NCBI GenBank assembly: GCA_900552495.1
Contig: URZY01000005.1
Coordinates: forward strand, 55,030 to 119,029
DNA length: 64,000 bases
Source of the DNA: an uncultured Mycoplasmatota bacterium
GTDB taxonomy: Bacteria > Bacillota_I > Bacilli_A > RF39 > UBA660
Direction: 5' to 3'
Shown here: one piece after another, positions 17,652-19,363 of the stretch
Numbering within the stretch: the first letter of the stretch is position 1
How the letters are laid out: every line of letters begins with the position of its first letter
The notes under the pieces: generated by a model
Seen by the model: only the letters and a program-made list of their open reading frames with translations
Told to the model about the DNA's origin: nothing
Database searches by the model: none
Translations under genes and position numbers: made by a program

Positions 17652-18038
17652 TTATTTAGTATATGGCTTTTTTGCATCGCCTAGCTCACCAAGTGAATCC
17701 TTAGCTGTTTCTTCAAACATCATTTCTAATTCTAACATTCTATCTAAATCTTTAATACCATTATCAATTTCTTCTTCTGAGGCACATTCAACAATAGCCA
17801 TTTGGCTTTGAACATTACTAGTAACACGATGATATTCTAAATTTTGGTAAGTCGGAGCAACTGTTGTAGTAATAGAAGCTGCTACTGCGGTTCCCATTTT
17901 GAATGCATTTATATCGTATTCTTCTTCTCCAGTCTTTTCATTCTTGACAGTTTCTACAGATTTTAATGATGTTGTCGTAGGTGTAGTAAGTAAACCAACA
18001 CCTGTTATTGAAGTGGCTGTTCCTAATGTTTCTAACAT
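17652..18038 (-). CDS. Small acidic hypothetical protein (128 aa), paralog of the 115-aa protein at 19016..19363
   Basis: It has a shared architecture: a Thr/Ser/Ala-rich hydrophobic N-terminal half (GTAVAASITTTV) and an acidic C-terminal helix ECASEEEIDNGIKDLD. Confidence 0.4.
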   Translation of the reverse strand: MLETLGTATSITGVGLLTTPTTTSLKSVETVKNEKTGEEEYDINAFKMGTAVAASITTTVAPTYQNLEYHRVTSNVQSQMAIVECASEEEIDNGIKDLDRMLELEMMFEETAKDSLGELGDAKKPYTK

Positions 18039-18039
18039 A

Positions 18040-18951
18040 TTATTTTCCTCCTATTCTTTTAACTACTGGTTGAGTAGTACTTTGAGCTTCATTAGCCATT
18101 TTTTGAATTTCTAAATCAACTTGTTCTCTCAATGCTGCTGATGGTTGAGTTAACTCTTGAGTTTGAGTCGTTTCTATAGTTGCCTTAGAAGAACTGGTAG
18201 TTGGTCGTACACTTTCCAATTTCTTTTTTTTGTTAGCGGCTTGTCTTTCTAGAAGCATTTGTCTAAGTTGTCGTGCCTCTTCAGGCGTTTTAATATTTTC
18301 TATCATTTCCTGTAAGGTTGGCAGTTCTTTACTCTTATCAATGCTTCGCTGATAGGCTTCTGAAGCAGCCCCATAACTTTCCACTAGTCTTTTACTACGC
18401 GTTTCTTCTCTTTTCTTCAAAGATTTTTCTATAAGTTTATATCGATAAATATGACTATTTTGAATATTAACGCATTGAAAGTTTATAAAGGCCGATAGTG
18501 TCTCTAAAGCTAAGGCTGGGCCAAGTACGATTGGTGCGATACCTAGTGCTAAGCCACCGATTGTTCCAGTAACTAGAATGGCATCTTTTATTAATCCACG
18601 TTGATGAACCTTTTTATTCCAATTCAAATATTCAATTATTTCGGTTGGCTTATTTTCATCCATATGATAATTTCTATTTTGTTCTCGTTTTAGTTCCTTA
18701 CGCCAATCTATTATAAGTCGTCTATACTTTTCAAGAATTTGATCTCTTTCTTTTTGAGTCTTAGCTTTTTTTAAAGCTTTATCACGGCTTTTACGACAAT
18801 GTTTTTCATATCTTGTTTGTAGAGATGGAAAAATATCTTTTAGAACTTTGAACTTTAATTCTTCCATCTTTAAAACAATCGGTTGAAATTTACTGGCTCC
18901 AAGTTTATCACAAAGAGCAATTTTTCTTTTTAATTCCTCTTTTGTTTCCAT
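18040..18951 (-). CDS. Hypothetical coiled-coil protein (303 aa) with a central Gly-zipper transmembrane hairpin
   Basis: Lys/Glu/Arg-rich predicted coiled coils flank GTIGGLALGIAPIVLGPALALETL. Its stop lies 1 nt from the start of the downstream 128-aa gene. Confidence 0.4.
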   Translation of the reverse strand: METKEELKRKIALCDKLGASKFQPIVLKMEELKFKVLKDIFPSLQTRYEKHCRKSRDKALKKAKTQKERDQILEKYRRLIIDWRKELKREQNRNYHMDENKPTEIIEYLNWNKKVHQRGLIKDAILVTGTIGGLALGIAPIVLGPALALETLSAFINFQCVNIQNSHIYRYKLIEKSLKKREETRSKRLVESYGAASEAYQRSIDKSKELPTLQEMIENIKTPEEARQLRQMLLERQAANKKKKLESVRPTTSSSKATIETTQTQELTQPSAALREQVDLEIQKMANEAQSTTQPVVKRIGGK

Positions 18952-19015
18952 TATAATCCCCCACTACTCTTCGAATGGCTCTTATTATATCATAAAAGAT
19001 TAAAAAAAGCAACTT

Positions 19016-19363
19016 TTATTGTTGCTTATTGGCTTTGACTAGCGTTTTAGCAGTAGTAATAGCTGTTGATGGCTCATTTAAACTTGCTACTTGATGGTCG
19101 AATTCTTGTTCCTTATCTTCTAAAAGTTCTATTCCTTTAGCTAATTCTTCATCAGACATTGTTTCTACATATGAACTTAATTGATTAACCATATAAACCT
19201 TTGGAACTTCTATATTATCTAACAAAGTTAAAACGGAGCAAACCGCACTTGTAGAAACTGTATCTTCATCACAAGTTTCAGATGTTGTATATAAACTAGC
19301 AGCAACAGTTGTGGTATCTAGGCTGTTGGCTATAATTGTATCTAATAAAGTCATTTTGATCAC
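19016..19363 (-). CDS. Small acidic hypothetical protein (115 aa), paralog of the 128-aa protein at 17652..18038
   Basis: TTTVAASLYTTSETC ... ETMSDEELAKGIELLED parallels GTAVAASITTTV ... ECASEEEIDNGIKDLD in the 128-aa protein. Confidence 0.4.
   Translation of the reverse strand: MIKMTLLDTIIANSLDTTTVAASLYTTSETCDEDTVSTSAVCSVLTLLDNIEVPKVYMVNQLSSYVETMSDEELAKGIELLEDKEQEFDHQVASLNEPSTAITTAKTLVKANKQQ

Follow-up and report, generated by a model that had tools for sequence, protein, structure and literature searches.

Results

Three genes fill the interval between truA and rplM

The window analysed here is a stretch of 64,000 nucleotides (nt) from an uncultured Mycoplasmatota bacterium (assembly GCA_900552495.1, contig URZY01000005.1, positions 55,030 to 119,029). 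Three open reading frames (ORFs) on its minus strand, designated A, B and C, fill the interval between truA (19408-20163) and rplM (17063-17494), where a first-pass annotation made by a model had located a three-gene cassette that it could not assign to any family. They are the local representatives of a module that joins a basic, predicted all-helical protein (B) to small acidic partners (A and C), and it is this module that is described here. The features of the locus are as follows.

19016-19354, minus strand: gene A, encoding a 112-amino acid (aa) acidic member of the 113-sequence small-partner family; the mechanically called ORF starts at GTG 19363 and has 115 aa
19109-19171, minus strand: conserved acidic helix of A carrying the family signature, residues 62-82, YVETMSDEELAKGIELLEDKE, from the family alignments
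19007-19027, minus strand: intrinsic terminator 3' of A, AAGCAAC-loop-GTTGCTT followed by a T run, from a terminator scan
18984-18992, minus strand: putative extended -10 promoter TGATATAAT for the B-C unit, read by eye
18040-18951, minus strand: gene B, encoding a 303-aa basic protein, predicted to be all-helical with a central hydrophobic hairpin; residues 1-250 form the conserved core, and the tail varies
18478-18585, minus strand: hydrophobic helical hairpin of B, residues 123-158, from hydropathy, family statistics and the helices of an AlphaFold2 (AF2) model
18442-18483, minus strand: motif NFQCVNIQNSHIYR at the hairpin exit of B, residues 157-170, family-invariant and resembling NVPCIIVQRYNRPR of CrtO
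17652-18038, minus strand: gene C, encoding a 128-aa acidic small protein, paralog of A
17739-17795, minus strand: conserved acidic helix of C, residues 82-100, AIVECASEEEIDNGIKDLD, from the family alignments
17570-17598, minus strand: rplM promoter TTGCAA-17-TATAAT, from a promoter scan; downstream boundary of the module

All three genes are real: B is kept in 92 GTDB species and the motif of the small proteins is kept across 113 copies. Each gene is preceded by a Shine-Dalgarno sequence (A, GAGGTG; B, GGGGG; C, GGAGGA). The GAGGTG of A lies 6 nt ahead of the ATG at 19354, which is most likely the start of the gene. Of the protein lengths given in the first-pass annotation, 303 and 128 aa stand, whereas the 115 aa proposed for A, counted from the GTG at 19363, should most likely read 112 aa. 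The 112-aa form is found identically in public metagenome-assembled genomes (MAGs; NCBI MDO5393857.1, "hypothetical protein [Mycoplasmatota bacterium]").

The TAA stop codon of B and the ATG of C are separated by exactly 1 nt, as had been noted before, and the ribosome binding site of C lies within the 3' end of B. Gene A is followed by the terminator at 19027-19007 and is therefore a separate transcription unit, B and C being a translationally coupled pair. The putative extended -10 element ahead of B is not accompanied by a -35 element and was not called in the consensus promoter scan. The hairpin 3' of C is weak and AU-rich (fold z=-1.45) and overlaps the rplM promoter, and therefore some read-through from B-C into rplM-rpsI is possible. 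A search for RNA elements in the intergenic regions of the module found none.

The small proteins form a single family of paralogs

For family analysis, 86 loci encoding B homologs were used (80 from a scan of GTDB species and six from metagenome look-ups), and every small same-strand ORF beside B in these loci was collected for clustering. The 113 small ORFs flanking B, i.e. 43 upstream and 70 downstream copies, fell into one BLAST cluster with 302 links between upstream and downstream copies at E-values down to 2e-9, some of the links being within one locus. When A and C are compared on their own, the match is weak (BLASTP, E=0.038 over 48 residues), but the family-level evidence is decisive and firmly establishes the two as true paralogs by sequence relationship, as the first-pass annotation had held. 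Its pairing of the acidic helices, ECASEEEIDNGIKDLD with ETMSDEELAKGIELLED, agrees with the family alignment. Its pairing of the Thr-rich segments was out of register, as TTTVAASLYTTS of A aligns with the first Thr patch of C and not with GTAVAASITTTV.

Members of the family have median values of 112 aa, pI 4.55 and a net charge of -7, and contain no segment that would be hydrophobic enough to span a membrane. The N-terminal ~68 residues are variable in sequence, but their composition is constrained (T 17.5%, S 10.4%, A 10.0%, G 6.1%); Ser and Thr together make up 28% and Cys 1.1% of this half, and Trp accounts for 0.1% of the residues of the family. The conserved part carries the signature a-x-a-Y-[VI]-E-S-[LM]-S-D-E-E-L-x-x-L-x-x-x-L-x-x-K-E and is followed by a short linker of acidic character, after which the proteins end in the basic sequence K-x-[YLI]-x-K. 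At the same comparison, identity amounts to 42% for A, 40% for C, 65% for B and 95% for rplM. Sdh5, which matched 5 of 63 members of the small family (E=5.5e-4), was rejected as a relative, since this looks like a generic match to an LSxEEL helix cap.

B is accompanied by one to three partner genes

Among the 84 loci with an intact B gene, 82 carry at least one small-family gene next to it on the same strand. A single downstream partner is the most frequent arrangement: the (upstream, downstream) counts were (0,1) at 46 loci, (1,1) at 19, (1,0) at nine, (2,0) at four, (2,1) at three and (1,2) at one. The genes for B and its partner overlap by up to 11 nt or lie up to 13 nt apart, and they are usually translationally coupled. 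A small-family gene also abuts B in nearly all of the ~28 loci in which B lies outside the truA-rplM slot. Even the two loci fetched for the most divergent B subfamily, L087 and L088, have such a gene 3' of B (E=1.8e-14 and 1.8e-6, respectively), and at L088 the divergent B still resides between truA and rplM. The conserved unit is B together with one to three small paralogs on either side; a fixed three-gene cassette, as originally described, is found here but is not the rule of the family. The charges of the components are complementary, the acidic partners being encoded beside a family of B proteins with a median pI of 9.6 and a net charge of +20.

The module is an old feature of a clade of gut Bacilli

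More than 190 homologs of B are present in a cluster database of 5.8 billion proteins, none of them named, and a full HMMER profile search with B yielded 227 matches among 1.84 billion cluster representatives. When one genome of each GTDB species was scanned, relatives of B were detected in 92 species; all of these are represented by uncultured gut MAGs, with labels that include Bacilli bacterium, Mycoplasma sp. CAG:877, Tenericutes, Ca. Onthousia and Ca. Faecenecus. Such MAGs labelled "Mycoplasma" at NCBI belong at least partly to the GTDB order RF39, in which UGA is read as stop (PMC8629427), and therefore translation table 11 is appropriate.

Some 55 of the 86 loci have the gene order rplQ - short-chain dehydrogenase (SDR) - ecfA - ecfA' - truA - [0-2 small] - B - [0-2 small] - rplM - rpsI. 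In Bacillus subtilis the order is rpoA-rplQ-ecfA-ecfA'-ecfT-truA-rplM-rpsI, and truA and rplM are contiguous in most Firmicutes. The cassette interrupts this usual junction, and to this extent the first-pass annotation rightly spoke of an insertion into a conserved neighbourhood. The insertion is not recent. Within the ~55 truA-rplM loci, identity to the B protein of the window falls from 65% to ~34%, with 84-95% for rplM, and no flanking repeats, mobility genes or other signatures of mobile elements were found around the cassette. Because the same slot is used in ~55 loci, because B diverges along with the neighbouring housekeeping genes, and because the GC content is like that of the flanks and repeats are absent, the cassette is by all these indications an old, vertically inherited feature of the clade.

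The slot is not invariable, which answers a question raised in the first-pass annotation. At the ~28 loci elsewhere, B is found, for example, between polC and an alpha/beta-hydrolase-murE-ddl cluster, between yqeY and yabP-yqfD-ybeY-dgkA-era, between murT and ftsA, or near scpA. Five species (loci L075, L070, L081, L083 and L086) have the B-partner pair between yqeY and the sporulation genes yabP-yqfD, the position taken by floA-yqfB in B. subtilis; no homology was detected.

B is predicted to carry a hydrophobic hairpin and contains invariant polar motifs

The AF2 model of B is confident (pLDDT 86, pTM 0.73) and consists of helices only. A hairpin is formed by two long ones, comprising residues 102-135 and 140-173, and its tip is made up of the hydrophobic segment 123-158. 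The hairpins of 183 homologs differ in sequence and have a median of 40 residues; a Pro in the turn is kept in 96% and a Glu in the second arm in 75% of the proteins. A GxxxG motif is present in 36 of these homologs (20%) and GxxxGxxxG in five (3%); the glycine zipper that had suggested a membrane pore or scaffold is not a conserved feature of the family. Both flanks of the hairpin are rich in Lys and Arg, and therefore both termini are, by the positive-inside principle, probably cytoplasmic.

An alignment of 49 B sequences with identities down to 37% (alignment A1) contains 26 invariant columns. These are concentrated in LGAxxFQ, E..E.NRNYH, PTE...YLxWNKxVH (pre-hairpin) and NFQCVNIQNxNxYR (post-hairpin), a degree of constraint that exceeds what a simple coiled-coil scaffold needs. 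In B of the window, the invariant residues include E86, N92, N94, Y95, H96, N112, K113, H116, C160, N162, Q164, N165 and R170. About half of the B proteins shown in A1 end in GGK or GGKK after a linker of variable length, including B of the window (GGK at 18040-18051). These ends and the K-x-[YLI]-x-K ends of the partners look like short terminal peptide motifs. In a distant B subfamily (P0230, P0236, P0226, P0231 and P0238; loci L087 and L088), one to three repeats of the type KY-Y-LL..P..I-MPK-LS-EE...W are present at the N-terminus. Informative fused domains were rejected for the long B homologs, the additional parts being K/E-rich helices or short repeats only. Homology of a C-terminal "TxEELxQLR" segment of B to the helix of the small proteins, prompted by weak hits of hidden Markov models, was likewise rejected, as hhalign gave a probability of 0.1%.

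No known family or fold accounts for A, B or C

Searches of Pfam, NCBIfam, PHROGs and PADLOC with A, B and C gave nothing significant (best E=0.013 for PADLOC and E=0.019 for PHROGs), in agreement with the earlier failure to assign a family, and searches of PDB sequences with the single sequences and with three profiles found no match. A Foldseek comparison of the B model, as had been proposed, yielded nothing at E<=0.001 from either PDB or BFVD, all matches having E>=0.2 and template modelling (TM) scores below 0.3. The best fold match in PDB was ExbB (E=0.22, TM 0.13-0.15) and the best E-value in BFVD was likewise 0.22; the top non-significant matches, ExbB/TolQ, AhlB/MakA and F-BAR, are generic long-helix proteins. 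On these sequence and model comparisons, A, B and C belong to no recognised family and the predicted fold of B is without known relative.

The first-pass annotation had named Asp23/Gls24-type operons and gas-vesicle proteins as families to which the cassette might turn out to belong. For Asp23/Gls24 (PF03780, DUF322), A and C gave no match at E<=1, and the family did not appear among those listed for 63 small-family members. Gas-vesicle models produced a single weak GvpK match in one of the 63 small proteins (E=0.0064), and no gvp genes were present in any locus. WXG100 (PF06013) had no Pfam match in A, C or the 63 members. In the Staphylococcus aureus asp23 operon, small acidic soluble proteins (Asp23/Gls24), often paralogs, are encoded beside a small membrane protein, AmaP, that anchors them at the cytoplasmic face. 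The module is alike in this layout, but differs in that B is larger, possesses invariant polar motifs and has its predicted hairpin in the centre, where AmaP has an anchor at the N-terminus, in addition to the missing PF03780 match.

B resembles the acyltransferase CrtO in a local motif

CrtO of S. aureus O-acylates the glucose of a membrane glycolipid at C-6'' (PMC5587911); no description of its reaction mechanism was found in the literature. The CrtO family, glycosyl-4,4'-diaponeurosporenoate acyltransferase (PF18927), is the most recurrent weak Pfam match in B, being hit at E<1 by nine of 49 members scanned singly (best E=0.0013). No B sequence reaches the gathering score of 27.3 bits, the best value being 14.1 bits (E=0.062) for the consensus core, which aligns the hairpin and the motif following it to positions 71-120 of the 123 positions of the CrtO profile.

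An alignment of six CrtO sequences was used for further comparison; it comprised five homologs from plasmids and S. aureus CrtO, the sequence of which was confirmed as a member of PF18927 (E=9e-24). Both B and CrtO are small Firmicute membrane proteins, B by prediction, in which a helical hairpin is followed at its cytoplasmic exit by a sequence of the form N-x-[PQ]-C-x-x-[IV]-Q-x-Y-N-x-x-R. This sequence adjoins the second hairpin arm and reads N-F-Q-C-V-N-I-Q-N-Y-N-I-Y-R in B, as compared to N-x-P-(C)-x3-Q-R-Y-N-R in CrtO; the invariant NVPCIIVQRYNRPR of CrtO occupies the same post-hairpin position as NFQCVNIQNYNIYR of B. Alignment of 198 B sequences with the six CrtO sequences by hhalign gave a score of 31.3 (P=6e-4, probability 28.5%, for a comparison chosen post hoc), and the 49-sequence alignment A1 gave P=0.037 and a probability of 1.4%. 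These P-values are inflated, because the comparison was picked after a scan of ~25,000 families. None of 300 shuffled controls reached 31.3: 150 column-shuffled alignments had a mean of 12.6 (sd 2.2, maximum 19.8) and 150 block-shuffled alignments a maximum of 24.0, and the reversed CrtO alignment scored 17.7.

Attempts to extend the similarity past the ~30 columns of the motif failed. The N-terminal and His-plus-hairpin segments score no better than shuffles, of which 35/100 and 31/100, respectively, reach the real score. The sequence E-T-x-x-A-E-x-x-H ahead of the hairpin and W-K in the N-terminal amphipathic region, both invariant in CrtO, are absent from B, which keeps only a His (NKxVH). 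The two proteins also differ in architecture, since B has no counterpart of the N-terminal transmembrane helix of CrtO and adds ~120 N-terminal and ~90 C-terminal helical residues. In addition, CrtO has no acidic partner gene, whereas B nearly always has one, and the fetched CrtO homologs adjoin genes for crtI-type desaturases/oxidoreductases or glycosyltransferases, which B loci never do. The data point to a real, local resemblance in this motif, with homology unproven.

Neighbouring genes in the window

Downstream of the module, a holin-like gene (15426-15791; PF06946, E=2e-4; phrog_1299, E=8e-8) overlaps an M23/endolysin-like gene (14783-15451), and both lie directly upstream of a gene encoding a 1530-aa EssC-like protein with FHA and FtsK/SpoIIIE domains (10075-14667), so that the trio covers 10075-15791 on the minus strand. 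Some or all of these three genes recur downstream of rpsI in most relatives; no further components of type VII secretion were recognised among the annotated neighbours. Upstream of truA, two ATPase genes of the energy-coupling factor type (20175-21745, minus strand) are not adjoined by ecfT, unlike in B. subtilis, and the same holds for relatives; the second ATPase matches ABC_tran weakly (E=1e-10). A 388-aa ORF lacking a Pfam match (22534-23700, minus strand) separates rplQ from the gene for the short-chain dehydrogenase. At this spot the close relatives L001 and L005 have ~100 nt and several others a gap of 1-1.5 kb, and the rplQ-SDR interval seems to be a variable insertion spot inside a conserved cluster. 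Finally, an Abi_2 abortive infection-like gene (6138-7085, minus strand; PF07751, E=4e-43) adjoins a gene for an HtrA-type serine protease.

Discussion

We tentatively favour the following reading, without quite calling it probable: A, B and C would represent a lineage-specific, vertically inherited two-component module, in which B is anchored by its hairpin at the cytoplasmic face of the membrane and forms a complex with its acidic partners. The strongly basic, all-helical B would be held there by the short hairpin, with both termini probably in the cytoplasm, and the invariant motifs E..NRNYH, YLNWNKxVH and NFQCVNIQN..YR would probably cluster at the junction between hairpin and cytoplasm. 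The acidic paralogs A and C, which are not predicted to enter the membrane, would probably dock onto B through their conserved YVESLSDEEL helix, while the variable N-halves rich in Thr, Ser, Ala and Gly are probably extended and would carry an effector or substrate function. B and C are made together by virtue of translational coupling, and A has a promoter and a terminator of its own. The module probably fulfils a housekeeping function in the cell envelope or in division of small-genome uncultured gut Bacilli, which belong at least partly to RF39. Topology, physical complex, helix docking and the envelope or division role are what we infer here, the last of these because of neighbours such as ftsA, murT, murE-ddl, scpA and yabP-yqfD. 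What speaks for the reading is that B and its partners keep together at 82 of 84 loci and in unrelated contexts, that their genes are closely spaced and their charges opposite, that B is strongly constrained and has Lys/Arg-rich flanks on both sides of the hairpin, and that the module is passed on vertically.

Several points weigh against this reading. The AF2 model of C, calculated with an alignment of 11 sequences, is uninterpretable (pLDDT 47). One natural in-frame fusion of B with a small protein was found (P0134), which, if genuine, would support physical association and a shared compartment. It is the sole fusion, its only contig has 1.57x coverage and it may reflect an indel or assembly error; as Rosetta-stone evidence it was therefore downgraded. 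The envelope and division theme around B in its alternative locations is weak, since housekeeping genes are densely packed in any small genome. Moreover, the invariant His, Cys, Asn, Gln, Glu and Tyr residues of B are more reminiscent of an active site or a site for ligand binding than of a passive scaffold, and the proposed model assigns no activity to the complex.

The main alternative is that B is a divergent CrtO-like O-acyltransferase that modifies a membrane glycolipid or Ser/Thr hydroxyls of its partners and thereby tethers the latter to the membrane. We consider this unlikely. In its favour, CrtO stands out as the top recurrent weak Pfam match, by the similar post-hairpin motif and by an hhalign score above all 300 shuffles. 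Invariant His, Cys, Asn and Gln residues placed by the membrane interface would also suit an active site better than they would a passive scaffold, and Ser and Thr abound in the N-halves of the partners. Set against this are the sub-threshold Pfam scores of B and the low probability obtained with the A1 profile, as well as the confinement of the likeness to ~30 columns that leave out E-T-x-x-A-E-x-x-H. CrtO was also a post hoc choice among the families scanned, and B is never located beside glycosyltransferase or carotenoid genes. That B might even be a new membrane-embedded acyltransferase which O-acylates its own coupled partners, and so generates a lipid-anchored protein layer at the cytoplasmic membrane face, strikes us as a long shot; to our knowledge, there is no precedent for bacterial protein O-lipidation by a CrtO-type enzyme with a genetically coupled substrate family.

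We hold it to be very improbable that the partners are exported or surface-located cargo and that B is their dedicated conduit or chaperone, possibly acting in a type VII or holin-dependent route together with the holin, the M23 peptidase and the EssC-like ATPase encoded nearby. Partners of ~100-130 aa that are acidic, lack signal peptides, occur as paralog pairs and vary in copy number do resemble WXG100/Esx-type substrates. Their N-halves also diverge fast, as reflected in the identities of A and C as compared to B and rplM, and the holin-like, M23-like and FHA+FtsK genes are located 2-7 kb downstream here and in many relatives. However, the partners have neither a WXG100 match nor a WxG motif, are almost devoid of Trp and have an N-half that is predicted to be of low complexity rather than a helical hairpin. 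At ~28 loci, B and a partner are found far from any EssC-like gene, and in the window rplM-rpsI and other genes intervene between the cassette and this gene. ExbB/TolQ and pore-forming toxins of the ClyA type (AhlB, MakA, SmhB), to which B has weak Foldseek matches, have in common with it a long bundle of helices that ends on one side in a hydrophobic helical hairpin. The matches are non-significant (TM 0.12-0.29, rmsd >16 A), lack sequence similarity and come without an ExbD/TolR-like partner, and a single short hairpin of variable sequence would make a poor channel.

It is hardly credible that A and C serve as precursors from which modified peptides of ribosomal origin are made, with the conserved C-terminal part as follower, the Ser/Thr/Cys-rich N-half as core and B as a new modifier or exporter. 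Such a view could explain a hypervariable Ser/Thr/Ala/Gly-rich half beside a recognition-like conserved helix and the several paralogous copies per locus, but ~110 aa far exceed the size of typical precursors, Cys is rare in the N-half, no modification enzyme, protease or dedicated transporter is consistently linked, and a vertically inherited core-genome module within ribosomal operons is unlike typical natural-product clusters. A toxin-antitoxin system, abortive infection system or prophage remnant that inserted itself at the truA-rplM junction, as might be imagined from the interrupted junction and the holin-like, endolysin-like and Abi_2 genes elsewhere in the window, is largely refuted and of negligible probability, given the absence of PADLOC, PHROGs or BFVD fold matches and of flanking repeats, the flank-like GC content and the shared slot with divergence in step with the neighbours.

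Uncultured small-genome Bacilli are common in human and animal guts, and their cell biology is almost unexplored. The module described here is conserved, probably highly expressed and embedded in a ribosomal-protein region, and it is likely important to these cells, because it has been kept across ~90 species-level genomes despite genome reduction. Although new and clearly delimited, it will count as one among the many orphan families of uncultured bacteria for as long as no activity has been demonstrated. B offers a tractable target for structural and biochemical work, as it combines a confident predicted structure that matches no other with dense invariant polar residues at the presumed membrane interface. 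If the module is only a lineage-specific scaffold, it would add one more orphan family, yet would provide a useful marker and a candidate factor of the envelope or of division. Should the CrtO-like motif turn out to be catalytic, insight into the module would extend to the CrtO family itself.

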